The notes beneath the pieces were generated by a model that saw nothing but the letters and a program-made list of their open reading frames with translations, had not been told where the DNA came from and searched no databases. Positions 11,956 to 55,670 of a stretch of 61,938 nt of DNA are shown piece after piece. Numbering within the stretch: position 1 is the stretch's first letter; the number at the start of each line of letters is the position of its first letter. Source of the DNA: a virus (taxonomy: Duplodnaviria; Caudoviricetes); IMG/VR virus record IMGVR_UViG_3300044806_000236, positions 1 through 61,938 of that record; one strand, written 5' to 3'. Position numbers and translations under genes: made by a program.

Positions 11956-13493
11956 GCTGCAGCTTCCTCTGCATTGACGGCCGCGGCATAGACGTCGGCC
12001 GGGTCAATCAGTTTCTGGCACATCGCGGTTCCAGTCGCCTTGTCTTCAAGGCAGAAGGCTGATCCGTAGTGCAGGCGATGGCACGGGTAGCAGTCGAGAC
12101 CACGCGGCGCCAGCGGGATGGTGTTCTTCCAGTGCTTGGTCAGGTTCTCATGCGACGAGTGGGAGAGCAGCACGACCTTGCGATTGTCTTCGAAGGCCAC
12201 GGCATTCAGCACACCGGTCTCGCAACCAATGACGACGTCCATCTGCTGCGCCAAGGAAAGCGTCTGGCGGATGCTCAACTCTCCAGACAGGAGAACAACC
12301 CGCGGCTCTTCTTCCCATCCCTGCTCGAGCAATCGGCAGGCGTCGTCGCCGACCATGAAGATACGGCACACAGGGTTTTCGATCAGGATCTTGGCGATCA
12401 CCGCGTCCTGGTGCGGGTAGAACTTGTGCATCGCAGATCCGGCCAGGGCGAACATCACGTTCAGGCCGCCGCCGATCCGCGCCTTCGCTTCGTCGCGCTC
12501 TTCTGCGGTCGGGTAGAACTTGCCTTCGCTGGTGTATGGAAGCCCGGCGATCTCCGAGGTGAACTCGAGGTAGTTCTTGTCCAGGTACTTGTGGCGCATC
12601 GCATGCGGCCACATGTGGTTGGCCCGCCCGGGCATGGCCAGCAGCGTACCCTCTACCGACTCGCAGAGATTTATGAACTTGTCGAACCGGTTCGATACAA
12701 CGCGCCAGAAGTCATTCAGCTCATGGTTCGGAACCTGGCCGTCATCCTGGATGAAAAAGTCGTCGATGTTCGGATCTTCCTTCAGTACATCCTGGCCCTT
12801 CGGGGTGGTCATCACCGTTACCCGATAGCCTTGGCGCTTCAGCACCGGCAGGATGTTCGCCGTCTGGATCATGTCACCGAATCCGCCGTAGCGGACAACG
12901 CACACGCTCTTGCGCCGCGCCTTCTGCTGCTTGGTGACGTAGGAGTTGCGCCACACGGAGCCGGCCAGCTTCTGGAAGACAAGCAGGAACGAATACTCCA
13001 TGCCGTCCTTGCGGTCTTCATTGACCAGGACGTCACATCCGACCGCCACTTCCTGAATCGCCGAGACGATGTCGCGCGGCTCGAAGTCGTGCTTGTGGTC
13101 AGGGTTTGACCCCATCTCGCCAATGTTCGGGTAGAAGTGCTTGTGCGGAAGGTAGAGGACCAGATAGCCGTCATTCTTGATGCAGCGCCACCAGTCCTTC
13201 AGGGCGCCGCGGTAGTCATCGATGTGCTCGAGCAGATGCGATGAGAAGATGGCATCGCACGACTCATCCTTGACGTACTCGCCAAGGTCGGCACAGTCCT
13301 TGACCACAAGATCAGGGCGCATCTTGATGCCGAACAGCTCGGTATCCTTGCACGAATCAACGCCGATGAAGTGGGGGAAAGCCTTGGACGGACCACAGCC
13401 CAGATCAAGAACGGCGCCGCGGGTGTATTCCACGACGTCGTACTTTACTTTGCTCGCTTCATCGCCGCATGGATCTTCCAGTCTCCAGACCAT
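11952..13493 (-). CDS. Class I SAM methyltransferase fused to a GT9 (heptosyltransferase-like) glycosyltransferase
   Basis: VLDLGCG and IFSSHLLEH in the MTase domain; VVRYGGFGDMI, VIGCETGVLN and CYPCH in the GT-B/GT9 domain. Confidence 0.85.
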   Translation of the reverse strand: MVWRLEDPCGDEASKVKYDVVEYTRGAVLDLGCGPSKAFPHFIGVDSCKDTELFGIKMRPDLVVKDCADLGEYVKDESCDAIFSSHLLEHIDDYRGALKDWWRCIKNDGYLVLYLPHKHFYPNIGEMGSNPDHKHDFEPRDIVSAIQEVAVGCDVLVNEDRKDGMEYSFLLVFQKLAGSVWRNSYVTKQQKARRKSVCVVRYGGFGDMIQTANILPVLKRQGYRVTVMTTPKGQDVLKEDPNIDDFFIQDDGQVPNHELNDFWRVVSNRFDKFINLCESVEGTLLAMPGRANHMWPHAMRHKYLDKNYLEFTSEIAGLPYTSEGKFYPTAEERDEAKARIGGGLNVMFALAGSAMHKFYPHQDAVIAKILIENPVCRIFMVGDDACRLLEQGWEEEPRVVLLSGELSIRQTLSLAQQMDVVIGCETGVLNAVAFEDNRKVVLLSHSSHENLTKHWKNTIPLAPRGLDCYPCHRLHYGSAFCLEDKATGTAMCQKLIDPADVYAAAVNAEEAAA

Positions 13494-13699
13494 CAGGCAC
13501 CTTCCACACTGGATTCAACTACCTTCTTCGGACGGCCGCCACGACGCTTTGGCTCATCGACAACGACGACGGCTCCATCGGACGCCGGAACCATCAGATT
13601 GCCGGCATAATCGAAAGGCAGATTGTCCTGCTCGTACCTGACATCGGAGATGCCATGCACTTCAGCAAACGGACGGCTGCGATCGAGAACTTGGGCCAT
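13493..13699 (-). CDS. Small protein with basic RRGGRPKK tail
   Basis: Start MAQVLDRSRPF at 13699. Confidence 0.6.
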   Translation of the reverse strand: MAQVLDRSRPFAEVHGISDVRYEQDNLPFDYAGNLMVPASDGAVVVVDEPKRRGGRPKKVVESSVEGA

Positions 13700-38747: not shown

Positions 38748-39092
38748 ATGAACCTATCAACTATGCTTATGGCTACAGTCACGCCATTGTCTGATTACAC
38801 ACCAGAGCGCGCGCCGAAGAAGAAGCGCAAGCCTGGTGGTGCTGTCGGGCCAAACAATGAGCAACTGCACATGCTAACCATTTCAAAGTATCGGGCGATC
38901 TGGAAACAAGGCGAGGTTTGGCTATCCACGCGCGAGATTGAAAAGCGCCTTCGCGTTGGTCGCTGTACGGTCACTTGCACGCTGCAAAAGTGGGCAGACA
39001 AATACAGCATTGTCGAGCGCCGCCATGCGTTCGGATCATTCTCAAAGCGGCATGGCTATGAATGGGCCTGGAGCGATAGAAAGCAAAAATGA
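38748..39092 (+). CDS. HTH-like protein, paralog 1
   Basis: MNLSTML...WLSTREIEKRL...YEWAW. Confidence 0.65.
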   Translation: MNLSTMLMATVTPLSDYTPERAPKKKRKPGGAVGPNNEQLHMLTISKYRAIWKQGEVWLSTREIEKRLRVGRCTVTCTLQKWADKYSIVERRHAFGSFSKRHGYEWAWSDRKQK

Positions 39093-39568
39093 CATTTGAC
39101 AAGGCAAGTGATCTTTTTATGTATTTTCCTAATACTGGATTGTTATTTTGGAAAGAACTATCTGGTAGAAGAAAAAATCCAATAAGTAGCCTTAGCAAAG
39201 GATATTTGCATGGAGAACATAAAGGAAAGCGTTTCAAAGTTCATAAAGTTGCATGGTTACTTTTTTACGGAAATATTCCTGACGGCCAAATAGACCATAT
39301 CAACGGAAATCGCTCTGACAACAGAATAAGCAATTTACGATCTGTATCTAACCTAGAAAATCATAGAAACATGAAAAAGTTTTCAACAAATAAATCTGGA
39401 GTTGTTGGCGTATCGTGGTCGAATGAAAGACAAAAATGGATTGCCACAATAACCGTTAAACGAAAAGTAATTCAACTCGGTAGATATTTGTCATTTGATA
39501 ATGCTGTATCTGTAAGGAAAGCCGCAGAGAAGCAATATTGCTTTCATAACAATCATGGGATGCGTTGA
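39089..39568 (+). CDS. HNH-AP2 homing endonuclease
   Basis: HKVAW, IDHINGNRSDNRISNLR, NKSGVVGV and AP2-like WIATI..LGRY; visibly AT-rich. Confidence 0.9.
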   Translation: MTFDKASDLFMYFPNTGLLFWKELSGRRKNPISSLSKGYLHGEHKGKRFKVHKVAWLLFYGNIPDGQIDHINGNRSDNRISNLRSVSNLENHRNMKKFSTNKSGVVGVSWSNERQKWIATITVKRKVIQLGRYLSFDNAVSVRKAAEKQYCFHNNHGMR

Positions 39569-39572
39569 CAGC

Positions 39573-39884
39573 ATGAACTGGCTATCGCAAATGATCCAGA
39601 CGCCCATTGATCTGCGAAAGCAGTATCCAAGCTCATACGAGACAAGGGCGCAGCCTAATGGCTTGGCGGTGATGAAAGAGTACAACGCCGTGCGCGGGAA
39701 GATTGCGCGCGGAATGATCATTGATGCGCTCGGAGACGAACGGCTTTCATCAACTGAGTTATTGACCAAGATCAAAAAGCGGAATGGCGGCGCATTCAAA
39801 AGGATGCTTGAAATCATGGTTGATGAAGGGTCAATCGCTGGCGAGAAGATCGGGCAGCGGTGTTTCTGGTGGCGCGTGAAATGA
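39573..39884 (+). CDS. HTH-like protein, paralog 2
   Basis: MNWLSQM...LSSTEL...FWWRVK. Confidence 0.6.
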   Translation: MNWLSQMIQTPIDLRKQYPSSYETRAQPNGLAVMKEYNAVRGKIARGMIIDALGDERLSSTELLTKIKKRNGGAFKRMLEIMVDEGSIAGEKIGQRCFWWRVK

Positions 39885-40021
39885 CAGCAGACGACTTCCT
39901 CGATACCGATGCACTTGCCGTGCTGACCGGATACCGCAGGCCAGGAAAGCAGGTTGAACACTTGCGCCGGGTTATGCCTCGGCGCCAACAACGGAGATTG
40001 ACAGATGGACCACTTGATTGA
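39881..40021 (+). pseudogene. Truncated DUF4224-like (excisionase-like) gene
   Basis: FLDTDALAVLTGYRRPGKQVEHLRR fits the family N-terminus; the resemblance stops at GTTATGC (39971). Confidence 0.55.
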
Positions 40022-40265
40022 CGACAGCAACAGACTCAAGCCATGCCCGTTCTGCGGCGCAGAAGCGGAAATCATCACGCTCGAAGGAGAGACGGATGAC
40101 CCGAGCATCGGTGCGCAGTGCGTGCAATGCACCAGCAGCGCATGCGGGGCGGCAAGCGGCCTGATTTACCCATTGATGGACGACGTAACAGACCTGCTGC
40201 GCGAGCGCTGGAACAAGAGGCATAACGCAAAAATCATGGGCGGCGAAGCCGTCCCGCTGGATTGA
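40005..40265 (+). CDS. Lar-family restriction alleviation protein (cassette 1)
   Basis: LKPCPFCG...VQC...CGA...WNKR. Confidence 0.8.
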   Translation: MDHLIDDSNRLKPCPFCGAEAEIITLEGETDDPSIGAQCVQCTSSACGAASGLIYPLMDDVTDLLRERWNKRHNAKIMGGEAVPLD

Positions 40266-40275
40266 CGGGTTAGGC
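40220..40275 (+). other. attC-like recombination site (56 bp)
   Basis: R'' GCATAAC, inner stem GGGCGGC-GAA-GCCGTCC, R' GTTAGGC. Confidence 0.7.
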
Positions 40276-40287
40276 ATGGAGGTTGAG

Positions 40288-40527
40288 ATGAGCGAGTACC
40301 TGAGCGAACCGCACGAATTTGTAGAGGACTGCGACTGCCACCAGTGCGCCATAAAGCAACGAGACATGGCGATTTGGATGCTTGCAGAGTGGTGCGCGGC
40401 CATTGATCGGAACGGCGCAGGCTGGGACGACTGGGACGAGTATTACAAGGACGCTGCATTCCGCCCAGGCCCGCTACGGCATAGGCTGGACAAGGCGATT
40501 GCAGAAGTGAATGAACAGAATGCCTAA
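40288..40527 (+). CDS. Hypothetical protein (cassette 2)
   Basis: GGAGG RBS just after R'; the stop TAA lies in the GCCTAAC R'' box. Confidence 0.7.
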   Translation: MSEYLSEPHEFVEDCDCHQCAIKQRDMAIWMLAEWCAAIDRNGAGWDDWDEYYKDAAFRPGPLRHRLDKAIAEVNEQNA

Positions 40528-40560
40528 CGCTGGCGTAACTGGCCTTGCGCCGGGTTATGC
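40522..40560 (+). other. Internally shortened attC-like site (39 bp)
   Basis: GCCTAAC...GTTATGC. Confidence 0.55.
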
Positions 40561-40578
40561 CTCAGGCAGAAAGGACTG

Positions 40579-41223
40579 ATGATGGACGACCCGAATATGC
40601 ACGCCTACGACCACTACCCCGACGACAGCGACCAGGCGCTACCGCTGCCGCCCGAAGGGCACCCGTTGCTCAAGCTTGGTCAGCGCCTGACAGAACTGCT
40701 TGACGAAGACCATTGGGCAGAGTGCGAACGCCTGTTGCTCGAAGGATGGGAACACGACCGTATTGACCGAAAGACCGGTTCAGATTGGCGGAATAACAGT
40801 AGCCTTGAACTTTGGTTCCCATTCTCGGCGGAAGAATTGGCCCGATGGAAGAGATCTGCCGAGGCCAACATCGAAGAAAACGTGCGGCTGCGCGCCGATC
40901 TGGATGAACTGAGGCATAACGCACTAGCTCAGGCGGACGCCGCTGATCTGATCGAATCCCAAGCCGCGCAGATTGCGTTGCTACGGGAGGCGCTAGGCCA
41001 CGCACTGAACGGCCTCCTCTACTACCACCACGCGAAGCTGGTCAAACGTGGCATTGATGTGGCAAACGAGGCATTGAGTGCCACCCCCGACCAAGCCCTT
41101 GAGCAGTTCGCCGAGCGGGTGCGGGATCAATTCGCTCTTGTCATCGAAGCACAGGATGTTGATCCATCGTTCAAACACAGGATGGCGAGTGCTATCCGCA
41201 GCTTGAAGGAGCTACCGAAATGA
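40579..41223 (+). CDS. Cassette-3 ORF fused through a half attC site to a mosaic module
   Basis: Reads through GCATAAC (40914) into ESQAAQIALLREAL...FAERVRDQ. Confidence 0.65.
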   Translation: MMDDPNMHAYDHYPDDSDQALPLPPEGHPLLKLGQRLTELLDEDHWAECERLLLEGWEHDRIDRKTGSDWRNNSSLELWFPFSAEELARWKRSAEANIEENVRLRADLDELRHNALAQADAADLIESQAAQIALLREALGHALNGLLYYHHAKLVKRGIDVANEALSATPDQALEQFAERVRDQFALVIEAQDVDPSFKHRMASAIRSLKELPK

Positions 41224-41432
41224 CCACACGCGAACAGATCATCGCTGCGGCGAACATATTCAATGCTTACAAACAAGCATTCGACTGGTACGCATTCGAT
41301 GAGGAAGAGCTAGAACACTTCTACGCCATCGCCTTCGAGGCGGGTCGTGTCGCCGAACGGGAAGAAACAAATAGACGACCATTACCAGATAACACTGCGC
41401 CTTATATCCGCGCAAGAGGAGATACGAAATGA
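41220..41432 (+). CDS. MTTREQII-family small protein
   Basis: Paralog of the C-terminal part of 28890..29696. Confidence 0.7.
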   Translation: MTTREQIIAAANIFNAYKQAFDWYAFDEEELEHFYAIAFEAGRVAEREETNRRPLPDNTAPYIRARGDTK

Positions 41433-44454: not shown

Positions 44455-44565
44455 ATGCTCGAAAAAATCGTCATCTGGCTAATCGGAATAGGCGCCGCAG
44501 GATGGGTTCTCGGAATCATCCTGAACCTCATTCTGCACGGCGCCATACCTTCACACTGCTGCTAG
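44455..44565 (+). CDS. 36-aa membrane peptide, possibly leaderless
   Basis: TATACT ends 6 nt before the ATG; one TM; stop overlaps the giant gene's stop. Confidence 0.45.
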   Translation: MLEKIVIWLIGIGAAGWVLGIILNLILHGAIPSHCC

Positions 44566-47500
44566 TCGACCCCAGGTGCAACGCGCCTGGCAACCTGATC
44601 CTTCATCTTCTTCACGTTGTCGATCTGGGTCTTCTTCTGGTCAGGGTCGATGTTGCTTCGCTCGATTGCGCGAATACGCTCATTGAGCTTTGACTCCATT
44701 TCCTTGACCTTGGCCAGCGGCTTGTAGCGCTTGAGCTCGTCGGCGTGTTCTGCCATGTACTCACGCGCCTCTTCGATGCGGCCCTCGCGCTTCATGTGGT
44801 TCCAGGTAGCGTGTGCCTGCTCAAGCTCATTGGCCTGATCATACATCTGGGTGATGTACCTAGACCCTCCACTTCCGACCTCTTGACCGATACCTTGGGT
44901 TGCGAACTTCAGGTAGTCCATGGTCGGACGAGTTGGCTCATTGCTGGCGGCACGGGACAGCATGTCGGCACCGCCCACGACGAACGTGCCAAGCCAGGAG
45001 AAGTAGCCGCGGACAATGTGATCAACCTGGACCGGTGACAGGGCGCCACCGATCGAAGCAGAAACAGCTCTGGCCGGCAGGCTGGTATTGGCAGTGTAAC
45101 GCTCGGTAGGATCAAGCCGCTGCATCGACATGTTCTCGATCGGCCGGCCGGTGAAGCTGTCCTTGTTGGCGTAAAGATCGACGATCGGCTTGATGGCCTG
45201 CGGAACCGGGTTCATCGACAGGTTGTTCAGGAGAAGGCTCTTGAGGATCTTGCGATACCGCTCTCCGTTCATCTCGTCGTTGAGCATGAGCTCGACAGAC
45301 CTCTCGGCTACGGTAGCCACGGCGCCAACTTCGAACGGCTTCGGGATACGCCAGGCGGTGTCGCCGATCTTGAACCACCAGAAGTTGTCGCGATCCCAGT
45401 CCTCGCGCTTCTTCCAGTCATCGTCATCCTCACTCGCCATCATCAGCGCGATCGAGAACAACGCGGTTGCACCGGTAACGATTGCCAGCTTTCTCGGGTC
45501 GTCCTTGGCCGCGCGCCCAAGCTTGTACATGCCCTGAAGTCGAGCGTTCATAAACGGAACGATCTGGGTTAGGAAGCGAATCGTATTGAAGCTTCCCTGC
45601 ATCGAGAAGTCCATCAGGTCGCGCGCTAGAAGAGATGCCTCGGCATGGCTACGGCCTTGCGCTACGAGCTGCTTGTAGAGCGCCATGCGGTTGATCTCTT
45701 CGCCGCGGTTTCCGATCTCGTTGTAGGCAGACACCAGCGGCTCAAGTGTGCGGTCATAGAACTGCTGGAGCTTGCCCTCGCTGTTCAGGATGGTCGAGTC
45801 CTTGACGCCAGACTTGATGAGCTGTCGAACCCGTGCAGACTCGGAACCCTCAAGCATGGTTCCGAAGCGAATCAGGCCGCCGCCGGCCAGCGCAGAAACG
45901 TAATCCTGGCTGGCACGGTTGGATGCCTTAAATCCCTTGACGACGTTGGTGACTGGGTTGTATCCAAGCTCGCTGGCGCCGATCGCCTGAAGCGAGTCGC
46001 GGATCAGGTTGCGCACCTTGAATGCTGGAGAGGCAGTGACACCGACCGTCAGCCAGTGCTTGAACTTCGACAGCGTATCCATGATCGGATTGCGCATACC
46101 GGCATACTCGAGGCCGGTGATTGCCGTCATCACGAAGGGGTCGGTGACCTTGTACTCCTGCTTCTGGCCATTGTCCATGTACCAGACCGTCTTCTTGGTT
46201 CCCGGGGGAAGCAATGCACCGTTCGACTGGGCATAGGATGCCATGTCTGGCGCAACCTTCTGCGCCACGCCGGCCTGCTCGGCAGCCTGCAATGAAGCCT
46301 TGGCCGCTCGGTTCTTGGCCGATGCGTCAATCAGGTGCGACCAGTTGAGTAGCGTGTTCGACAGCAGGTCGGAGTTCAGCTTGTCGGTTCCACCCTTCAG
46401 CTTCTGGAATGCGCGCTGGCGAACCAGGCCGCTCTTGATGTTGCTGCCAATGAACTCGTTGTCTTCCTCTGACACACGGTAGAACGGGACGTAGAACTGG
46501 TTCTCCCAGTGCGGGCGAGAGGCACCATCGATCAGACCAGACTGCTCGGCCATGTCCAGCGTGTTCTTGTTGAACTCGTTGAAGATACGCAGTGCATCCT
46601 TGTAGATCAACGCACGGTTGCGCGTCGTGGCGCCGCCGGGAAGCGTGTAGTCGAACGTGGTCTGTCCGGTTGCAAGAGACTTTCCTGCGGCAATGTCTTG
46701 CGGCGAGAACAGGTTTTCCTTGCCTTGCGCAGAAAGGGCATCAGCTCGGTTCGCGGCGACCCACCACATGAAGTCCTCGAGCTCTCCATTCAGCGGGATG
46801 CCGAGACGATCAACGAAACCACCGGACGTGTCTGCATCATAGACATTGTCGCGAAGACGAAGCTTGCCATGGTGGAGCAATGCATCGAATGCACCGGACG
46901 CTCCCTTCGACAGGCGAGACAGCATGTATGCCTGCATTCCACCCGGGCCGAGATCCTTTAGGCCGCGGAACTGATCGACAATACCGGTCGCCATCTTCTT
47001 TGCGAAGTCGCTGCGCATGGCGCCAAGCTTCTCAAGGAATGACGGCTCGTCGATAGTGCGGCCGACACGCTTGAAGAAGTCGGTGTGGTCCTGGCTGTAC
47101 GGGCGAGTGCTGGCGCCGATGATGCGAGAGGTGCTCTTCCGGATGTCCGGATTGGCCGGATCGAACTGGCCGTTGTTTCCGATGGCGGATTTGATTTGGG
47201 TGGTGTCGAATGCATACGCAGTCTTTATGTTTCCGTCTTTATCAACGAACATAACGCCGTCGTGACCATCCCGCGCCAATGCTTCATCTGTCTTGCTTCT
47301 TGACCACTCGCGTAACCCGTCATCTGGAAGCGAGAAGACCTTCGGATTCTTGATGGAAACATACAACGGCATGATATTCCCGCCGCTTCCTTGCTCTGTT
47401 ATTCCTTCCTTCGTATAAACAGAGGCGAGTTCTGTATCTGAAGTTACCCATATACGCTTGCCCTTGAAAACAGAGAAGTCTTTCGGAGTGCCGTGATAAA

Positions 47501-50500
47501 CCACCAACGGCTTCCCATCGGCATCCACCACCTTTGAGTCACCAAACCACTTCTTGAACTCCGGCGTATCGGTCTGGGTACGGCGTGGCGAGAACAGCGG
47601 CAGCGGCTCGGACATCTTGGGGGTGACGGAGAAGCCAGGCTGGTCGCTTCTTGCGGATACCAGCTTATCTCTGAAAGCACGAGCATCAGACTCGGTGTCA
47701 AAGTCTTGCTCTCCGCCATCCCACTCTACGTGCTGTGTGCCATCGGAGTATTCGCTCCAACGAATCTCTGAGTCATCGGTATTAACCCCCGTGTTTACGG
47801 AAACCACCTCCATCTTCCCGCCGACCTTCTTCAGTTGGTCAGAGACTACCTGCGGGACGATGCGGTCGTAGAAGGTCTTCATTCCCGACCCGCCGACTTT
47901 TAGATCGAGGCCGCGATACTCGGCGTTCGTGTCCTCATCTGTTACATCGTTTATGATCTTCTCGGCCAACTCTTTTCCGACCAAGTCGGGAAGCTCATCC
48001 TTCGTAACTTTTTTGTTGATGATGTCTTTGTCGCGACCCTTGTCAGCGCCGACAAGATACTTTCCATCCACAGACATTCCGGCGTATATAACGTCAACCT
48101 GCTTGCTCAGATCATACCGATCCGCAGACTGCTCGCCATTGATGAACGCCACCTTGTCGTAGCCATTGGCAGCAGCGTAGGCCATGATGCGCTTGATGGA
48201 TAAACCGAGCCATGCTTTCGTGTCGGTGACGAAGGGGGCGGACGGGGCTCCACCAGTAAAACCATTGCGAGTTGTCGCCGACTTAATGGCCTCTTCCTTC
48301 GTTTCGGCATAGGTGCCAACCTGAGTTTTACTGTTGTCGAACACAGCCCAGCGTGTTGCGTATGGGCTGATTTTTACTTCTTCAACAGACCATCCGGCAG
48401 GCAGCTTTCCGTCAGAGACAAACCCCTTCTTCTTCCCTTCCTGGCCCCAATCGCTCTGCACTTCCTCGATGAACAGTGTCTTTGCACCGGTTGAATCAAC
48501 GCGGTCGTTCATGCGGATGTGCGCAAGGATATTCGGCTCGTCCCAATGCGTAGAGCGGTAGTTGTTTCGGTCGGACTGCTTTGCGTAGCCTTCCATTGCG
48601 CCCTGTGCGCCACGCTCGGTGGCCCAGGCCAGCACCTCGCCAGAGTCGCTGCCCACATACAGCTTGCCGTCCGGCTTGCGGATGACATAGGCGCCATCGG
48701 CGTTTTCCTCAACCGCCCAGCCCGACTGCTGCCGGTTGGCCGGCAGCGTCAGCAGCAGCTCCCGGTAGTTGGACCCACCCGGCAGGACGTACTGGCCGTA
48801 CTTGGTTGCCTCATTGCCACCCCAGTAGTCCGGGTGGCCCATGTAGGCGTCAGAGATTGCTTCTGCTTCAGTGCCGCCGTAGCCGAGCACGTCGCCATCA
48901 GCGTTCTTGACCTGATACGGGTAGCGGCCTTCGCCCTGGTCATCGATCTCCAACCCAGCAGGCAACGTCGGGTTGTCTTCGTTGAAGCCCTGCTTGCCCT
49001 TCATCACTTCCTGAACCTGCACACCGCTGCCAGCCAGATACCCCAGCACATCAGACTTGCTGACCTTCTGCTTGCCCATCAAATCTAAAAAGTCATTGAT
49101 GCCCGTCCACAAAATCTCGTCGTCCTTGATCCCCAGCTTGGCCTTGTTGCCGGCGAGCCACAGCTTGACCTGGGCAGCCGGGCCGAACACGCGGTCCGGC
49201 GCCGATTCGATCGCCTTCTCGAGGCCGGAGAAGTACCAGCGGGATGGGGAGTAGCGGATGTCGGGATTGCTGCCATCGAACGTGCCGCGGTTGCCCGAAG
49301 CTGATTTGATTTCTGCTGAACGAAAGGCGACGTAGGTATCGCCGCCATCAGACGCTTGGCCTGGCGAGTCCTCGTAAATGATTGCGCCGTCGTAGCCGGC
49401 CGCCTTGAGCGCAGCGACAAAAGCGTTTTCACCGTTGTCGTCGTTGTCAAACAGCTCCCACTGGTTCTGTACGTTGTGGATGAACCGGGTGTTGAAGCCT
49501 GCGTTTTCAAGCGCAAGCTCATCCTGCTCAGTCAGCCCTTGCCGCAGGTCAAGCGGATTTTGCAGCGCCATGTAGATCGGCATGACGTTCTTGCCTGATC
49601 CATCACGCAGGTACTCTTGGGAAAACTCAAGGGACGGCGTTGCAAAAATACCGGCGCGTGACGTCGTGACGTCGCCGAGCAGACCGTAGTTGTTGGTCGT
49701 TTCGCGGCCAGCCTCAAACTCGGTGATGTCACCGTTGGTCGAGTGATACATCAGAAGCGGTAGACCCTCGGCGTCGACCGGACCGTTGCCGTACCAGTCC
49801 CAGAAGTTACGCAGCGCCTGCTTGGTCGGGGCGATCATCCTGCCGTCGCTGGCGACGTTGCCGCGCGTGATCTTTTCCTTGGCACCGCGCGAAGACACAA
49901 CCACTTCGTCTGTCACCGTAGTGCGCTTGGTGGCGAAGTCTTTGGCAAAGAGGTCGTCTTGTCTGGCCGGGCTGAACTTGATGTCATCCCGGTAGTACAT
50001 CTTCCCGTCTTCAAGATCCGCAGCCCGTGGCTCGAATTTCTTCCACTCGGCACCGGTCATCTTGCCCATGGGGAGGTCGGTGCGGCGTTCTGTTTTCGGT
50101 GCAGTTTCGACGCTGACCGCAGGAGCCACGGCATCGGTCGGCGTAACTCCGCGGGTTGCGGCGCCGCCCATCAGGATGGCAACGCCTTGACGTCCGAAGA
50201 CGCCTGGCGCGTAGTATCCATCGAACCCTGCGTCGAGGATCAGCGACTCGCGGTCGTTTGCATCGCGCGTCTTCTGGCGGATACCTAGCGGATCTGCCTT
50301 GATGTCGTAGAGATTGTCGAGCTTGACGGTGTGCGCGTAGGCACCGACACCAGACTCCGGAAATACACCCTGGCCTTCATTGACGTAGGCGTACAGACGA
50401 GAATGGAGGCGCGTGTCTTTCGCTTCCTTCAGGCGCTTTCCTTCTTCGCCGGCCAGGCCGGTTCCGAAGTATCCTCCGGTCAGGTGCTTTCGTTGCTTTC

Positions 50501-53500
50501 TGGAGTAGTGGGTGCCGGTGACGTCGACTCGTCCCAACTGGCGATCACCTGGTCGACCCTGTCCTGCAACGCCGCCATTTGCTGCGGGTTGTCCATATCC
50601 CCGGGCGGGGCTGAACTTTGCGCTGAAGTTGTCTGGGGTTGCGCCAGTTTCTGCGGCGTCGCGCTCGAGCCGGTTGGCTGGCCCCCATCCGTATTGGTCT
50701 GCGTATCGCTTGTTGACTCGGTCAATTGCGGGCGAAAGCTGATCATCGGCCCACTTGAGTAGATCGGATCGTCCGGCTTTGCCCACCCGAGACTTGTAAT
50801 CTTCGCCATTGGGAGATTCCTTCCAGTTGTTTTCGATTGCATCACCGTCAAAGGTGAATGACCTCATTGTCGCCCCATTGGCCCAAGGCTTCAACTTTCC
50901 TGCGGCGCGCTCAATGATTTTCTCGAATTGCTTGTGATCGAACTGCTGCGCCGGATTGTCATTGAAGCTGGTGAAGTTTAGGAAACGCACGCCAATCGGC
51001 GTATTTGCTGGTGCCCATTCCTGATGCCCAGCCAGCTTGCTGACGATGCCGTAGAACTCGGCGACTTCTGCTGTCGTCAGGGAGCGTCCGAAATTAACCT
51101 CGACGCCGGTCGGATACATGGCGTGATTTTCTGGTGCGCGATAGACCGGGTAGTGCCAATAGACGCCTTCCTGGTTCAGTACATAACCAAGGATTGATGC
51201 GGCCACTTCAAGATTCTTGCGCGAATCGGCGTCGACCTTGACGCTGCCCATGTTGTCGGCAACGATGCCGATCTTCTGCAGGATGGTCTGCGCGCCAGCG
51301 GCGACGTCGCCTTTCCATGCAGACGGACCAAACAGCGTGCGACGGAAGTCAATGCCGAGCTTCTTGCCGACCTGCAGCATGTCAAACTCGGCGAAGATGT
51401 CGGCCAGGTACTGCTGCTGGACATGAAGTGGCGCACCGAAGATGCCCGGCAAGATACCGGTCGTTCCGCCTGGCTTGGCTTCCCAGCTGATTTGCATGTT
51501 GGTACGGCGCTGGCGCTGCAGGAATTCGATCCGGCGCCCTGCTTCGTCGAGCATGCTCTGGCGCTTCTCGTCGGCGAACGGTGCGCGGCCGGGGTCTTCG
51601 TGCTTTGGCATCGGCATGGTGTTGAGCTTCTGCCCAAGTCCGGCGTTACGCAGGATGCCTGCATACGGCTCCTGACGGAACAGCAGTTCGAAGTCTGGCG
51701 TGGCAGAGATCAGGTCGTCCGTGATCACCCCGTCGTTCATCAGTTGCTTGGCGGTACGGGTTTCGCCAGATGCGTCGAGCGTCTCGAGCATGGTCTTGGC
51801 CCACGACCAGATGGTTTCCTGCACCTCTGCCGGCGTCCAGGCGACGCCCGTTTCTTTCGACAGGATCTTGGCCGCCATGCGTGTCTTGACGTTCATCGCC
51901 AGGTAGCCAGCGCCCTTGCCGGGATCAGATCCGTCCTTGCTCTTGCCGGTGCCGGAAAACAGGTTCTGATCGACCAGCGCGTAGTTTGCCACCCAGGCGT
52001 CGTTGGTCACTTCTTCCCAGTTGCCGACCAGGTTCAGCATGAAACTATTGACCTTTGGACCGGACAGCGTCAGGTCATCCAGGTTCTTGATGGTCAGCGC
52101 ATCCATCGAGTTATTGACCCAGGCTCCCATCACGCTGGATTCAGCGCCAGACCCTTCGACGCTCTGACCGAGCAGGCGCATGATTGAAGGCTTGTCGGTC
52201 GGGCGGCCGGCGGCATCCCAGTTGGCCCACATGCGCAGCGCGTTGCGCGTATTGACCTCGACGGAAACCTGCGGCGACAGCGCCGCCAGCAGCCCGGCAA
52301 AACGGCGGGCCTCGGCGCCAAACAGATGCGACAGTGCGTTGGCGCTGTTTTTGTACCAGCCGCGCTTGGCCTTTCCGGCATAGGCGACAGCGGCCATTTC
52401 GTTTTCTGACGGCATGACATTGAACAGCTCAACGATGCGGTCTTGGTTACGCTTGCCGACCTTCGATTTCTCGCGATCGGTCATCAGCTTCTTGAGCTTT
52501 TCAATGTTGGTCTGTTTTCCGGAGAACTTAACCACGCCATCGCCCGCCGGCTCAACCGTGCGGCCGTCCTTCACCGCCTTGGCGTAGTCGGCAAATCCTT
52601 GAGCCATGGCCTCGCGTATCTTCTCGAGGTTGTCTGCCATACGCCGATCGACGGCGAACATCGTACCGCCACGGATGGTGCGCAGAAGACTGTTGATGAC
52701 CTTGACCACGGCCATGCGCAACTGGTTGATGATCTTCTTGGCCAGCGTAGTTCCGTGCTGCTCCTCTAGCTTGGCGAACATCGAGCTCCAGAACTCAGCC
52801 TCGCCCCAGCGGTTTCCACCAAGGTCAGCCATCCACTCTTCGACCAATGCATCGCGCTGTTCAGCGGACATCTCGGCCGGCATCGTCTTGCCGTTGTTGT
52901 AGTCGGCGTAGAAAGCCTTCAGCTCCGCATCGGTGAGGAGCTCACTGACCGCATCAAGCATCTGCTGATAGACCTTCGGCGCCTGACGACGCAGGGCGTG
53001 CATCATTTCGTGGCCGAGCACGCGCAACTGGGAAACGCTCGAGTCAGACTTGATGTAGATCGTGTTTCCGTTTATGTAGAAACCATCGGCGTCGGCATCA
53101 GTCTTGAAGATGACGATCTTCTTGCCGAACAGTTTTGCCAGCATGCGCAGGCTCTTGGCGCCCTGTTTGGTAAGCGTTCCTGGAGCGTCCGTATCCTTTG
53201 CGTCCGGAAGCGCTTCGTCTTTGACTTCTTCGAAGTCGGTGGCGCCAATCGTGCGCGCTACTGCGGCATTGTCAGGAGCCTGTTCGGGCATGCCAGTGGT
53301 TCGCCCAGAGCGACGATCGTTCGCTTCCTGTGCCACGGCATAGGGATCGCGGCCGGCGGCCTTCTGGCGCGACGGCGATAGCTTGCCGGTGCTCTTCTCG
53401 ATCTCGGCCTGGGCTTCATCAGCAGTCCGTCCAGACTGACTGATCGGAGAAGTGGTGTCGCCCTCTTTTGCCCAACGAGCAAACGTGGCGGCCGGCATTC

Positions 53501-55670
53501 CGATAACTGCCTTGCGGCGCTTCGGGCCAGACTTGTCGCCGAAGTGATCGTCGTATGCCCGGGCGGCGTCGGCCTGAGATGAATAGCCGATCATCCCCTT
53601 GTGCTCGTCGAAGCGTCCAGTCTTCGGGTTGAACTGGTCAATGACATAGACCGTTCCACTGTGATCTGCTGGCGTACCTTCCTTGACGAAGACGTCGACC
53701 TGGTCGCCATCGGCGCCAACGGTACGCTTGATGTACCCGTAATGCGCACGCATCGTGGTGGTCCAGGACTTCTTTCCTTCCTTTCCGGATCGCGTCGACC
53801 CGATCGGATTCTCGACGGAAATGTCGAGCGGACCAACCTTGATGTGGCCCTTCTTGTAGTTTCCGGCGGCGATCTGTGCTTCGCTCGGAGATGTATTGGC
53901 AGCAGCTGCCTCTTCATCAACAAGCGCCGTTCCGCGGGCTTCCGCGGCGATACGTGCAGCGGCGATACGTTCAGCGTTTCTTGCTTGAACTCCAGGCATG
54001 CTTGATACCGGCTGCGCAGATTGCGGCGCCAGTTCGCCCTGTGCCGATTCAAGAGCTAGTGCAGACTCGGTGGCGTCGGAAGTTCCCATAGCCATAGACG
54101 TTCCGCGGCCAGGAACAGATGATGCGGCAGTGTTACTGCTTCCACCTCCGATTCCTGAGACAGTAGATGCATTTCCTCCGCCTCCGCCTGCGACAGAACC
54201 TCGTCCTTGACTGCCTGCTTCATCCAGTTGGGGAGCATTGCCGTCCTCCTGTTCGAGTTGTTGCCGGCGCATGGCAGCCTGGTCCTGCGCCTCGAGAGTG
54301 AGGCGGTCCTTTGGAACCATGGCAAAGCGACCACTGACGCGCGGGTGCGGAACTACCGTCAGTCGGTCAGCATCTTCGCGTTGATCGATCGCGCTCTGGG
54401 CTGCGTCTCTGCTGGCGAACGGGACAAGCGTTGTTCCGTTGTCCAGCATTTGACCGGTGATTCCGGTATCGACTACTGCGGCCGACAGTGCGCCGTCGTT
54501 GCGGTTGATCTCGGTTGTTCCGCCGCTTTGGTTAGGGACAATGATCGCGTCAGGCTTTCCGTTGTAGCCAATCTGCGGAACGTCTGAAGGAAGCGCATCA
54601 TAGGCGGCCGTCGCTCCTGCCAGTTCAGTGTTGGATGCAGTGAGGTCAGCAGCAGCCTCTTCCTGAGTCATGGGCTGGGTTTGCTGTGGCGGCTTTGCCA
54701 TGTACGAGCGCACGCCGGCAGGGGCGCCAGCGATGCCGAACAGCATGGTCTGCGCAGCCGTGTTGATGTACTCGTCGCGAGCCTCTGGGCTCATCAGTTC
54801 CAACTTGGCAGCATCACGCTCAAGCACGGTCTGGACAAGCTCAACCGGTATTTCCTTGCCGGCCACGATCGCCATGTTTCCGGCAACAGTCTTGACCAGC
54901 GGGTAGGCGCCTTCGCCAGCGGCTCGATACGCACCTTTGCCAAGCATGCCGCCGAGCAGGATCTTGTCGCCAAGGAATTCTGCAGCAGCATGGCCGGCAG
55001 CGCGCGGAAGAACCTGGCCGAGCTCGACCTGGTTCGGATCGTACTTTGCTTCCTGAAATGCTCGCGACCCAGTTTCGCCGACGCCATGGAATCCAGCCAT
55101 GCCGGCAATTGCTGCGTTCTGCCCGACTTCCTTGCCAATCTCTTTTGCAACAAACTTCTTGGCAGCACCTTCACCTTGGTCGACGGCGATCTTCTTCGCC
55201 TCATCCAACAAGGCATCCTTGATGATTTTCTTTCCGACAAAACCGGTAGCACCACCAACGCCAGCGGTGATCGGATTGCCGAGCGCGCCACCTAGTAGCG
55301 TTCCGGCGCCGGCCGCAACCAGAGACTCAGCAAGATTTCCCGTGACTTGGCCAAGGCCATGCTGCGCCCAGTCGATCGCGCCGCCGACATCCTTGACGTT
55401 CGTGAATTCGTCAGTCGGCTTACCTCCGATCTCTTCAACCTTGCGGTTGGCGTCCTGCATCGTCTCGATACCAGACTGAACCATGCCTTCGCTATCGATC
55501 GCTTTACCGACAAGCGCCTTGCCGGCGCCGTACATTTCCTGCATCTGCGGGACATACTTCTTCAGGCCGCGCAGGTAGTCGCCTTGCTCTGCCTTTGCCG
55601 GCGCAGCACCATCAATTACATTGTCTGGATCAAAACCGTCGAGCTTGATGCTGCTGGGATCGAACGCCAT
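44562..55670 (-). CDS. Giant polyvalent (probably virion-injected) protein, 3702 aa
   Basis: Pyrophosphatase-like domain (GNYKKGH..HYGY..GADGDQVDVF), zincin HEMMH, ART-like domains (YHST, YHGT) and LPD38-like C-terminus (WRIPKPFEVG). Confidence 0.9.
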   Translation of the reverse strand: MAFDPSSIKLDGFDPDNVIDGAAPAKAEQGDYLRGLKKYVPQMQEMYGAGKALVGKAIDSEGMVQSGIETMQDANRKVEEIGGKPTDEFTNVKDVGGAIDWAQHGLGQVTGNLAESLVAAGAGTLLGGALGNPITAGVGGATGFVGKKIIKDALLDEAKKIAVDQGEGAAKKFVAKEIGKEVGQNAAIAGMAGFHGVGETGSRAFQEAKYDPNQVELGQVLPRAAGHAAAEFLGDKILLGGMLGKGAYRAAGEGAYPLVKTVAGNMAIVAGKEIPVELVQTVLERDAAKLELMSPEARDEYINTAAQTMLFGIAGAPAGVRSYMAKPPQQTQPMTQEEAAADLTASNTELAGATAAYDALPSDVPQIGYNGKPDAIIVPNQSGGTTEINRNDGALSAAVVDTGITGQMLDNGTTLVPFASRDAAQSAIDQREDADRLTVVPHPRVSGRFAMVPKDRLTLEAQDQAAMRRQQLEQEDGNAPQLDEAGSQGRGSVAGGGGGNASTVSGIGGGSSNTAASSVPGRGTSMAMGTSDATESALALESAQGELAPQSAQPVSSMPGVQARNAERIAAARIAAEARGTALVDEEAAAANTSPSEAQIAAGNYKKGHIKVGPLDISVENPIGSTRSGKEGKKSWTTTMRAHYGYIKRTVGADGDQVDVFVKEGTPADHSGTVYVIDQFNPKTGRFDEHKGMIGYSSQADAARAYDDHFGDKSGPKRRKAVIGMPAATFARWAKEGDTTSPISQSGRTADEAQAEIEKSTGKLSPSRQKAAGRDPYAVAQEANDRRSGRTTGMPEQAPDNAAVARTIGATDFEEVKDEALPDAKDTDAPGTLTKQGAKSLRMLAKLFGKKIVIFKTDADADGFYINGNTIYIKSDSSVSQLRVLGHEMMHALRRQAPKVYQQMLDAVSELLTDAELKAFYADYNNGKTMPAEMSAEQRDALVEEWMADLGGNRWGEAEFWSSMFAKLEEQHGTTLAKKIINQLRMAVVKVINSLLRTIRGGTMFAVDRRMADNLEKIREAMAQGFADYAKAVKDGRTVEPAGDGVVKFSGKQTNIEKLKKLMTDREKSKVGKRNQDRIVELFNVMPSENEMAAVAYAGKAKRGWYKNSANALSHLFGAEARRFAGLLAALSPQVSVEVNTRNALRMWANWDAAGRPTDKPSIMRLLGQSVEGSGAESSVMGAWVNNSMDALTIKNLDDLTLSGPKVNSFMLNLVGNWEEVTNDAWVANYALVDQNLFSGTGKSKDGSDPGKGAGYLAMNVKTRMAAKILSKETGVAWTPAEVQETIWSWAKTMLETLDASGETRTAKQLMNDGVITDDLISATPDFELLFRQEPYAGILRNAGLGQKLNTMPMPKHEDPGRAPFADEKRQSMLDEAGRRIEFLQRQRRTNMQISWEAKPGGTTGILPGIFGAPLHVQQQYLADIFAEFDMLQVGKKLGIDFRRTLFGPSAWKGDVAAGAQTILQKIGIVADNMGSVKVDADSRKNLEVAASILGYVLNQEGVYWHYPVYRAPENHAMYPTGVEVNFGRSLTTAEVAEFYGIVSKLAGHQEWAPANTPIGVRFLNFTSFNDNPAQQFDHKQFEKIIERAAGKLKPWANGATMRSFTFDGDAIENNWKESPNGEDYKSRVGKAGRSDLLKWADDQLSPAIDRVNKRYADQYGWGPANRLERDAAETGATPDNFSAKFSPARGYGQPAANGGVAGQGRPGDRQLGRVDVTGTHYSRKQRKHLTGGYFGTGLAGEEGKRLKEAKDTRLHSRLYAYVNEGQGVFPESGVGAYAHTVKLDNLYDIKADPLGIRQKTRDANDRESLILDAGFDGYYAPGVFGRQGVAILMGGAATRGVTPTDAVAPAVSVETAPKTERRTDLPMGKMTGAEWKKFEPRAADLEDGKMYYRDDIKFSPARQDDLFAKDFATKRTTVTDEVVVSSRGAKEKITRGNVASDGRMIAPTKQALRNFWDWYGNGPVDAEGLPLLMYHSTNGDITEFEAGRETTNNYGLLGDVTTSRAGIFATPSLEFSQEYLRDGSGKNVMPIYMALQNPLDLRQGLTEQDELALENAGFNTRFIHNVQNQWELFDNDDNGENAFVAALKAAGYDGAIIYEDSPGQASDGGDTYVAFRSAEIKSASGNRGTFDGSNPDIRYSPSRWYFSGLEKAIESAPDRVFGPAAQVKLWLAGNKAKLGIKDDEILWTGINDFLDLMGKQKVSKSDVLGYLAGSGVQVQEVMKGKQGFNEDNPTLPAGLEIDDQGEGRYPYQVKNADGDVLGYGGTEAEAISDAYMGHPDYWGGNEATKYGQYVLPGGSNYRELLLTLPANRQQSGWAVEENADGAYVIRKPDGKLYVGSDSGEVLAWATERGAQGAMEGYAKQSDRNNYRSTHWDEPNILAHIRMNDRVDSTGAKTLFIEEVQSDWGQEGKKKGFVSDGKLPAGWSVEEVKISPYATRWAVFDNSKTQVGTYAETKEEAIKSATTRNGFTGGAPSAPFVTDTKAWLGLSIKRIMAYAAANGYDKVAFINGEQSADRYDLSKQVDVIYAGMSVDGKYLVGADKGRDKDIINKKVTKDELPDLVGKELAEKIINDVTDEDTNAEYRGLDLKVGGSGMKTFYDRIVPQVVSDQLKKVGGKMEVVSVNTGVNTDDSEIRWSEYSDGTQHVEWDGGEQDFDTESDARAFRDKLVSARSDQPGFSVTPKMSEPLPLFSPRRTQTDTPEFKKWFGDSKVVDADGKPLVVYHGTPKDFSVFKGKRIWVTSDTELASVYTKEGITEQGSGGNIMPLYVSIKNPKVFSLPDDGLREWSRSKTDEALARDGHDGVMFVDKDGNIKTAYAFDTTQIKSAIGNNGQFDPANPDIRKSTSRIIGASTRPYSQDHTDFFKRVGRTIDEPSFLEKLGAMRSDFAKKMATGIVDQFRGLKDLGPGGMQAYMLSRLSKGASGAFDALLHHGKLRLRDNVYDADTSGGFVDRLGIPLNGELEDFMWWVAANRADALSAQGKENLFSPQDIAAGKSLATGQTTFDYTLPGGATTRNRALIYKDALRIFNEFNKNTLDMAEQSGLIDGASRPHWENQFYVPFYRVSEEDNEFIGSNIKSGLVRQRAFQKLKGGTDKLNSDLLSNTLLNWSHLIDASAKNRAAKASLQAAEQAGVAQKVAPDMASYAQSNGALLPPGTKKTVWYMDNGQKQEYKVTDPFVMTAITGLEYAGMRNPIMDTLSKFKHWLTVGVTASPAFKVRNLIRDSLQAIGASELGYNPVTNVVKGFKASNRASQDYVSALAGGGLIRFGTMLEGSESARVRQLIKSGVKDSTILNSEGKLQQFYDRTLEPLVSAYNEIGNRGEEINRMALYKQLVAQGRSHAEASLLARDLMDFSMQGSFNTIRFLTQIVPFMNARLQGMYKLGRAAKDDPRKLAIVTGATALFSIALMMASEDDDDWKKREDWDRDNFWWFKIGDTAWRIPKPFEVGAVATVAERSVELMLNDEMNGERYRKILKSLLLNNLSMNPVPQAIKPIVDLYANKDSFTGRPIENMSMQRLDPTERYTANTSLPARAVSASIGGALSPVQVDHIVRGYFSWLGTFVVGGADMLSRAASNEPTRPTMDYLKFATQGIGQEVGSGGSRYITQMYDQANELEQAHATWNHMKREGRIEEAREYMAEHADELKRYKPLAKVKEMESKLNERIRAIERSNIDPDQKKTQIDNVKKMKDQVARRVAPGVD

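Follow-up and report, generated by a model that had tools for sequence, protein, structure and literature searches.

In this study, we found that positions 39961-40944 of the window, which is the whole 61,938-bp stretch of phage DNA analysed, are best explained as a small array of genuine integron attC sites that has partly decayed and lacks an integrase. The array would bound three cassettes, namely a Lar-type gene, ORF83 and the N-terminal module of ORF214 (Table 1). Judging from sequence comparison, we give this explanation a probability of about 0.88.

Table 1. Predicted features of the array and its borders (positions of the window).
Feature	Position	Strand	Remarks
Truncated DUF4224/excisionase-like ORF, 45 aa	39884..40021	+	3' end reads through the first half-site
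attC, right half (spacer and GTTATGC box 39971-39977)	39961..39980	+	First copy of the 20-nt repeat; left box absent upstream
Lar cassette	39964..40225	+	Block common to many viral records; ends in GAGGCATAA before the crossover C
Box pair around the Lar gene	GTTATGC 39971 / GCATAAC 40220		Full repeats GTTATGCCTC / GAGGCATAAC
Lar-like restriction-alleviation gene, 86 aa	40005..40265	+	Last 14 codons (HNAKIMGGEAVPLD) encoded by attC
attC, intact, 56 bp	40220..40275	+	Model R2 and fold
Box pair around ORF83	GTTAGGC 40269 / GCCTAAC 40522		Full repeats GTTAGGCAT / ATGCCTAAC
ORF83, cargo of the second cassette (40226-40527)	40276..40527	+	TAA stop inside the GCCTAAC box
attC, shortened, 39 bp	40522..40560	+	Both boxes kept, centre lost
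Box pair around the first half of ORF214	GTTATGC 40554 / GCATAAC 40914		Full repeats GTTATGCCTCAG / CTGAGGCATAAC
ORF214, fusion protein	40579..41223	+	Residues 4-115 third-cassette cargo; residues 163-214 backbone C-terminus
attC, left half of a fourth site (GCATAAC box, spacer, start of L stem)	40914..40944	+	Now coding, RHNALAQADAA; right half lost

Two covariance models were made in this analysis from phage-derived sites. The training set of R1 included the window site, and R2 was built from 75 sites of relatives, none of them from the window. The first-pass annotation, a reading of the DNA letters, had proposed that such a model should recognise the region, and R2 scored 40220-40275 at 47.4 bits (E 3.8e-9) on the plus strand versus 9.6 bits on the minus strand. 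This site aligned over all 59 model positions, with two non-standard pairs in the L stem, and was the top match of the whole window when both strands were searched with the filters off. The site at 40522-40560 came second with 19.7 bits and a marginal E of 0.014, and 33 central model positions were replaced in it by 12 nt. In the bottom-strand reading, 40220-40275 consists of the GCATAAC box, a spacer, the L stem, a GAA loop, extra bases on the 3' arm, a spacer and the GTTAGGC box. The inner stem and GAA loop described for it earlier are present, but against shuffles the fold shows no significant gain in stability (z -1.1). The second site is indeed reduced to 39 bp as had been claimed; its L box and loop are absent, its fold gave z -1.5 against shuffles, and the second 20-nt repeat copy makes up its right half (40544-40563). 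With the L-stem mismatches and weak fold of the one and the marginal score of the other, the window's own sites are poor.

The outer half-sites were found by no model, and R2 did not detect 40914-40944. At 39961-39980, locus comparison showed that relatives possess a full attC, and the similarity to Lar cassettes in other records begins at 39964/39965. The stretch 40914-40944 is 96.8% identical over 31 nt to positions 4189-4219 of locus L008, which are the left half of an R1 match at 4189-4251, and the two sequences then diverge, in agreement with the earlier statement that only a left half is kept there. The tally for the window is one strong site, one marginal site and two half-sites; the published threshold for a CALIN is two or more predicted attC sites without intI (PMC9892861). 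As described for the attC consensus, the R boxes read RYYYAAC / GTTRRRY with a conserved AAC (PMC5027507), and inverted boxes of this kind are present as GCATAAC...GTTAGGC at 40220-40275 and as GCCTAAC...GTTATGC at 40522-40560. GCATAAC and GTTATGC each deviate from the consensus once, and GTTATGC, which had been called GTTRRRY-like, departs from the strict motif by a T at position 5. AAC and GTT were invariant in 12 of 12 aligned sites. The alignment of these 12 sites predicted a 7-bp R stem, unpaired spacers of 6 and 5 nt and an L stem with one bulged base, with compensatory changes in 9 of 16 pairs, and the single-strand DNA folds of relatives' sites reached z values from -2.8 to -5.8 against shuffles.

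The models also connect these elements with known integrons. In 5 kb of plasmid R100, the sole R1 match below E 2 was the aadA1 attC of the class 1 integron, with 52.4 bits and 4.8 bits on the other strand. In a betaproteobacterial MAG, R1 found 13 sites, all on one strand and with E 0.06 or better, and an integron integrase lies 3.6 kb past them (TIGR02249, 466.7 bits; cut-off 265). Together with the R2 match in the window, these results indicate that the window sites are genuine integron attC, as the first-pass annotation supposed. An Rfam scan of 39800-41100 gave just two matches, both at chance level. It could be argued that short GTT and AAC words flank three ORFs by chance, since bare GTTRRRY is not enriched in the window (83 observed versus 90 expected). 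However, the exact 10-mer GTTATGCCTC has four copies in the window, all inside 950 bp and none elsewhere, where arithmetic gives approximately 0.12 expected copies on both strands. This clustering, the score of a model trained without window sites and the recurrence of the same architecture in 22 of 22 related records refute chance, to which we attach practically no weight.

All six 7-mers of the first-pass annotation are present at their coordinates, and the paired boxes are exact reverse complements as described, but their length had been understated, because they are really inverted repeats of 9-12 bp flanking the three genes. Two exact direct repeats also occur in the region, one of 20 nt (39961 and 40544) and one of 13 nt (40217 and 40911); the exact 20-mer had no match in viral_contigs. 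We considered the 20-nt repeat as the target duplication of a 583-bp insertion and did not find support for this. Explanations of the gene-flanking repeats as promoters, as long-range 5'-3' mRNA pairing or as MITE-like terminal repeats were dropped after the match to the R100 aadA1 attC and the comparison of relatives' breakpoints.

The comparison of Lar loci points to mobility of the Lar gene. By blastn, 19 Lar loci gave a match; the shared block began at 39964-39969 in 13 of them and ended at 40226-40228 in 10. The gene occurs in at least 11 different neighbourhoods, and homology stops in the conserved AAC triplet. On the left, identity starts just after the AAC of the upstream box in 8 loci, among which this box has 7 different forms; on the right, identity stops directly after GCATAAC in 11 of 11 loci, with different flanks beyond it. 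The proposal that the gene-content breakpoints of relatives coincide with the boxes was thereby borne out, and we believe, from these alignments, that the Lar gene is a mobile cassette. The boxes flanking a gene were complementary at 5.72 of 7 variable positions versus 4.35 after shuffling (reached by 0 of 10,000 shuffles), and the boxes within a site at 4.45 versus 4.14 (reached by 135 of 10,000), in cassette counts that are not fully independent because related contigs share cassettes and exact duplicates alone were removed. In the window, complementarity is 7/7, 6/7 and 7/7 for the end boxes of the three cassettes and 4/7 for each of the two sites. Among the joints listed for the contigs of four runs, none removed exactly one cassette and none was a circle junction; contigs drop rare forms, and the result has no bearing on excision.

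We also considered that the elements might be RNA or transcription signals, such as intercistronic hairpins, terminators or processing sites, with the genes shuffled by homologous recombination between these repeats and no site-specific recombinase involved. The elements form part of every gene's 5' leader and would fold in the mRNA too, their stems contain G-T pairs, attC sites are said to be weak terminators (PMC9892861), and IntI is absent from 21 of the 22 records. However, selection on a hairpin base would make the boxes co-vary within a site, whereas the gene-flanking boxes co-vary instead, and the 8 left and 11 right contexts break within one and the same AAC triplet rather than at scattered points of the repeat. 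The model also recognises the attC of a clinical class 1 integron and, beside IntI, the array of a chromosomal integron. We consider this explanation very improbable.

On R100, the R1 match falls on the strand opposite the aadA1 coding strand. In the phage loci, 86 of the 95 matches lie on the gene strand, and so does the GAA loop of the window site, a loop type said to be typical of attC bottom strands (PMC5027507). Because ORF length could not decide the coding strand (the longer ORF was plus in 26 and minus in 21 of the 47 cassettes), the strand was settled by PHROG matches, obtained for 6 of 10 plus-strand and 0 of 10 minus-strand cassette ORFs, and by the Shine-Dalgarno motifs ahead of the plus-strand starts. 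In the bacterial integron, the GNAT and HTH genes are on the other strand and the Lar homologue is on the model strand. These results indicate that the bottom strand of attC serves as the coding strand in the phage. If so, each attC would belong to, and travel with, its downstream gene, and the crossover would take place in the ...TAAC box at the 3' end of the gene. The crossover had originally been placed at the GTT box ahead of the gene (G/TT), and this choice of box appears to be wrong, given that the R100 match is opposite the aadA1 strand.

The Lar-like protein matched Pfam PF14354 with E 1.2e-9 and 38.7 bits, above the gathering cut-off of 28.6, and PHROG 599 with E 5e-11, and by these profile matches its gene is predicted to be a Lar-type anti-restriction gene. 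ORF83 belongs to no Pfam or PHROG family; it has 71 metagenomic homologues, none of them named and most on short contigs, and a peptide-pattern search of viral_contigs gave no relatives. Residues 4-115 of ORF214 are 59% identical to a 124-aa cassette protein of locus L002, and residues 163-214 are 74% identical to the C-terminal 53 residues of a 149-aa protein from locus L003. ORF214 is best read as an in-frame fusion of a cassette gene with a phage backbone gene over a dead attC. With the half-site at 40914-40944 now coding and both parts of the fusion matched, the proposed decay of attC sites into ORFs is real. At the left border, the 45-aa ORF gave weak matches to Pfam DUF4224 (E 0.02, profile positions 5-25 of 45 only) and to PHROG 4764 excisionase (E 9.5e-4). 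No relatives of the backbone gene 39555-39884 were found in viral_contigs, and for this reason no "empty-site" relative of the window phage was found.

Clustered attC sites on one strand were found in 22 of the 22 viral records examined, with 1-9 sites each. The integron integrase was found in one of the 22, G011 (453 bits), which also has tail, tape-measure and endolysin genes. The first-pass annotation had described the window phage as lacking an integrase, and we agree: the 95%-complete record gave no match to PF00589, TIGR02249 or PF00239, that is, no tyrosine or serine recombinase, and a complete integron, with intI and attI beside the array, is not present in it. The cultured Lessievirus phages JC1 and BcepIL02 share the ssb region alone, at 70-73% nucleotide identity, and approximately 16 kb around ssb in each of them gave no attC match below E 0.2.

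From this anatomy, we infer that the cassettes come from a pool circulating among unrelated environmental phages and bacterial integrons. The integron integrase would fold the bottom strand of attC into a hairpin and exchange strands between A and C of the AAC, and the cassette would be excised as a circle and re-inserted at another attC or attI. In gene direction, the layout of the pool would be attC, ribosome-binding site, ORF and RYYYAA. Expression of the cassette genes may depend on read-through from the phage early operon, without an integron promoter, and the integrase, which the window phage does not encode, would be supplied by a host's integron or by a co-infecting phage. The array appears to be eroding, with one site intact, one centreless and two outer half-sites joined to truncated backbone genes. 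IntI could hardly rearrange it at present, because there is at most one good site.

Both ends of the array are truncated half-sites, so ordinary recombination may have brought the block in or trimmed it. The block might even be a fossil that came from another phage or an integron-bearing genome by homologous or illegitimate recombination, in which case IntI never acted on the DNA of this phage and the attC sites are passengers. At the left end just a right half-site survives and at the right end just a left half-site, and truncated backbone genes adjoin both; the centre of the middle site is gone, and the 20-nt exact repeat of two right halves resembles the product of a homology-driven rearrangement. 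The DUF4224-like ORF and Lar stand unbroken in a contig of run X6 (record 25, 39883-40227), and its sequence before 39883 differs from the window, which places the junction in another neighbourhood. However, the internal boundaries 40225/40226, 40527/40528 and 40919/40920 keep the cassette footprint at 7/7, 6/7 and 7/7, respectively, and a fossil origin would cover the last entry step alone and does not contest that IntI made the units as cassettes. We regard it as possible, though on balance somewhat improbable.

Beyond the array of attC-bounded cassettes itself, we speculated, at odds a little short of even, that unrelated podo-like and sipho-like environmental phages share a dedicated pool of "inverted" cassettes (attC ahead of the ORF). 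These would carry accessory and counter-defence genes such as Lar, be shuffled by integron integrases, some of them phage-encoded, and be silent in bacterial integrons. If this is true, the inverted pool would mirror, on the phage side, the bacterial integrons that serve as defence-gene stores, and one phage attC, being almost identical to the clinical aadA1 attC, would link it to the pool that feeds mobile resistance integrons.

Beyond motif matches, the comparative breakpoints indicate that accessory genes of the early region, in this case an anti-restriction gene, pass among many unrelated phages and bacterial integrons in the form of integron cassettes. The placement of genes on the bottom-strand side of attC is a testable rule for how phages use the integron system; it would imply expression by phage read-through and cassettes that are silent facing Pc in a bacterial integron. 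The region also provides defined sites and cassettes that IntI assays could use and an example of attC decay into coding sequence that would create gene fusions. The practical weight of the present window is modest, since the array is mostly eroded and phage attC clusters are already published (PMC9892861).

The 2023 study in question reported attC clusters in virulent and temperate phages without IntI and counted 17 CALINs of at least two sites each in a screen of sequenced phage genomes; five of six tested phage attC sites were recombined by IntI1, and orphan methyltransferases were suggested as cargo of an anti-restriction type (PMC9892861). In contrast to the present window, the portion of its main text drawn on here makes no mention of Lessievirus-like phages, Lar, gene-strand inversion or one cassette common to many phages. 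Loot et al. described cassette insertion outside att sites (attG) as isolated cassettes, which can be expressed from nearby promoters (10.1101/2022.09.11.507474). Insertion at attG would offer IntI a route to place a first cassette in a phage genome that has no attI, whereas no attG-type junction could be shown in the window, both ends of the array being truncated attC halves.

Like the aadA1 attC of the class 1 integron In2 of R100, the phage sites have 7-bp inverted R boxes, an invariant AAC, unpaired spacers of 5-6 nt and a variable loop (GAA), and their L stem carries one additional base on the arm that lies opposite the AAC as well as a second extra T. A phage site at 390-452 of L002 differs from the R100 aadA1 attC at 4 of 60 positions. 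The site lengths of 54-129 bp and the cassette boundaries in the AAC triplet are also those of integrons. Unlike integron cassettes, the phage genes lie on the bottom-strand side, with attC before the ORF and the ORFs pointing toward a would-be attI/intI; the window cargo is of phage type (Lar, PHROG families), and the record has no integrase, attI or Pc. In phage mosaicism, accessory genes or morons are gained and lost as single-gene units between short conserved boundary sequences of the early region. The window differs from this in that its boundary is a structured, predicted attC, the breakpoints are fixed at one triplet and the cassettes carry the footprint of a circle.

The six 7-mers that the first-pass annotation had reported around three consecutive genes were all found in place, and they form the cores of longer inverted repeats that bracket the genes (table). 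The whole window holds four copies of an exact 10-mer, every one within the array region, and the loose pattern GTTRRRY was not enriched in the window. The longer direct repeat consists of two identical attC right halves, whereas the right halves of the two cassettes differ in relatives; gene conversion or unequal recombination is a possible origin of this repeat. The original observation of an attC-like array, and its main reading that the phage gains accessory genes as integron cassettes, hold.

Features of the array and of compared loci (window positions unless a locus is named)
Feature	Position	Sequence or remark
HNH endonuclease gene	39089-39568	Pfam HNH_3, E 3e-18; PHROG 99
20-nt exact direct repeat	39961-39980; 40544-40563
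13-nt exact direct repeat	40217; 40911
Lar gene	40005-40265	PF14354, 38.7 bits; inverted repeat GTTATGCCTC / GAGGCATAAC
Intact attC	40220-40275
ORF83	40276-40527	inverted repeat GTTAGGCAT / ATGCCTAAC
39-bp site	40522-40560
ORF214	40579-41223	inverted repeat around first 115 codons, GTTATGCCTCAG / CTGAGGCATAAC
Left half of attC	40914-40944	96.8% identical to attC of L008, a related viral contig
Segments skipped or replaced in contigs	41248-41322; 41340-41405	about 39-67 bp, many contigs, 3 runs
3,702-aa ORF	44562-55670	minus strand
X1 contigs end or overlap at sites	40244-40273; 40915-40944
X5 contigs end or overlap at sites	39951-39980; 40207/40224; 40544-40573
Lar loci with left break at AAC		L009, L012, L014, L015, L016, L018, L022, L027
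attC ahead of ORF214-N-type cassette	L002 390-452	uncultivated viral contig
aadA1 attC	R100 13475-13534
Short phage-type site and Lar homologue	L036 7899-8580	betaproteobacterial MAG
Complete integron of G011	L053 1-4068; L054 16337-17853

In the loci of relatives, GTTAKGC and GCMTAAC boxes alternate in runs, and intergenic elements of 54-60 bp (some 70-126 bp) each begin with a GCMTAAC box and end with a GTTAKGC box. The consensus of 12 aligned elements has a 7-bp outer stem, unpaired spacers of 6 and 5 nt, and an inner stem made up of 3 + 6 pairs and a single bulged base; double changes preserve pairing in 9/16 pairs. Folded as single-stranded DNA, the relatives' sites had z values of -2.8 to -5.8, and the two sites of the window -1.1 and -1.5. 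R1, a covariance model from 12 aligned sites, gave 95 matches at E <=1 in the window and 27 loci (209 kb), 86 of them on the gene strand. As an outside control, 5 kb around the class 1 integron of plasmid R100 yielded a single significant match (52.4 bits), which was the aadA1 attC, with 4.8 bits on the opposite strand. In a contig of a betaproteobacterial MAG, R1 detected 13 one-stranded sites (E 0.06 or better), mostly close to 129 bp long; 3.6 kb past the scanned stretch there is a protein that matches the integron-integrase model TIGR02249 (466.7 bits, cut-off 265). The features that define attC in PMC5027507 are therefore present: AAC-containing R boxes, a central spacer that stays unpaired, extrahelical bases on the arm opposite AAC, and a variable terminal structure, often GAA on the bottom strand. 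The GAA loop of the window site is on the gene strand. With filters off and the whole window as target, R2, a model from 75 matches with the window excluded, scored the intact attC at 47.4 bits (E 3.8e-9) and the 39-bp site, whose centre is missing, at 19.7 bits (E 0.014), with nothing further at E <0.3.

At the left end of the array, only the spacer and the GTTATGC box of Lar's attC are left, and they are attached to a 45-aa ORF whose resemblance to DUF4224/excisionase is weak and partial. Lar comes first in the interior and extends 40 nt into the intact attC, followed by ORF83, which ends at the TAA of a box, the 39-bp site and the N-module of ORF214. This module shares 59% identity with a 124-aa cassette protein that stands free in L002 and has its own co-varying boxes. 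The reading frame of ORF214 continues past the half attC, and its final 52 residues match the C-terminal end of a 149-aa gene in the related contig L003; the gene that follows in L003 likewise has its match in the gene following ORF214 in the window. Thus, ORF214 is a fusion across a dead attC. The array of the window is small and eroding.

IMG/VR contigs contain 20 relatives of Lar. The blastn block common to the window and the Lar loci starts at 39964-39969 in 13 and ends at 40226-40228 in 10 of the 19 matching loci. In eight Lar loci, upstream identity starts directly 3' of the AAC of the preceding box, with seven different boxes among them (e.g. ...GGCATAAC, ...CTCTAAC, ...TGCCTAAC), and downstream divergence begins directly after GCATAAC in 11/11 loci. 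The breakpoints on both sides of Lar therefore indicate that attC travels with the downstream gene and that the exchange point is within AAC, which fits the bottom-strand cleavage between A and C described in the available text of PMC5027507. The terminal stem shows compensatory changes between variants. Box statistics were calculated for unique pairs in phage loci, leaving out the bacterial locus and the 15/66 sites with model ends off AAC/GTT. Boxes flanking a gene were complementary at 5.72/7 variable positions versus 4.35 for shuffled partners (reached by 0/10,000 shuffles), and the two boxes of one site at 4.45/7 versus 4.14 (reached by 135/10,000); the three cassettes of the window scored 7/7, 6/7 and 7/7 and its two sites 4/7 and 4/7. 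This pattern is the circular-cassette footprint proposed earlier, but the crossover box lies 3' in every gene, at its end.

The minus strand of the R100 locus carries aadA1, whereas the R1 match is on the plus strand; R1, which derives from the phage coding strand, therefore describes the attC bottom strand. PHROG matches were obtained for 6/10 plus-strand cassette ORFs (two Lar-like) and 0/10 minus-strand ORFs, AGGAG-like motifs precede the plus-strand starts, and the plus-strand stop is the TAA inside the box in 10/47 cassettes; ORF length did not decide the strand (26 vs 21 of the 47). By these criteria, the phage cassette genes do lie on the bottom-strand side of attC. In the MAG integron, GNAT and HTH genes are on the canonical strand and a Lar homologue (PF14354, 51.7 bits) is on the model strand. 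Although most sites of this chromosomal integron measure 129 bp, the one that precedes the Lar homologue is a short, 63-bp site of phage type.

None of the recombinase types sought (tyrosine recombinase, integron integrase, serine recombinase) is encoded in the window record. Clusters of 1-9 one-stranded sites occurred in all 22 viral records examined, and IntI (453.4 bits) in one, the 35.9-kb record G011, which also encodes a tail fibre, tape measure, endolysin, and an integrase and excisionase of its own. G011 carries a complete integron of IntI and 10 attC divided between the two ends of the contig, with six sites at the start and four at the end; sites and cassette ORFs are all co-directional with intI. 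This split suggests that the G011 genome is circularly permuted. We infer that the phage sites would depend on IntI.

The window is an entire IMG/VR record of 61,938 bp, rated 95% complete, and the array is placed downstream of ssb within a run of small plus-strand genes. Nucleotide similarity to cultured phages in the region is limited to ssb (70-73% identity to Burkholderia Lessievirus phages). Lessievirus-like podophages are known to have giant virion proteins; the window has a 3,702-aa ORF. Parts of the stretch are present in at least 20 metagenome runs from 11 studies, labelled freshwater, wetland, soil, sludge and aquatic. Four runs were compared: contigs of X1 and X5 end or overlap at sites, and in X6 Lar gives way to unrelated sequence directly after 40227. 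As contigs, they show variant neighbourhoods, not recombination events. The HNH gene is absent in X5 and X14 contigs, where 39065 is linked to 39573 through 11 other letters; this free-standing gene of homing type is thus polymorphic for presence or absence. A segment inside the gene at 41220-41432 is locally hypervariable.

In the full-text literature search, attC in phages was the subject of one paper (Qi et al. 2023, PMC9892861), and Lar as a cassette of none. The main text of Qi et al. reports 17 CALINs in phages and IntI1 recombination of 5/6 phage sites. That main text does not mention restriction alleviation or Burkholderia; 'orientation' is confined to a cloning method and the title of a reference, and 'metagenom' likewise to the title of a reference. 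The supplementary tables of the paper may list related phages. Compared on the bottom strand, the attC of L002 resembles the clinical aadA1 attC of R100, with 4 of 60 aligned positions differing. The strand evidence indicates that phage-pool cassettes carry the gene inverted relative to ordinary integron cassettes. Phage attC clusters are a known kind, to which our results add this inverted gene orientation, phage-type cargo, and one widely shared cassette.
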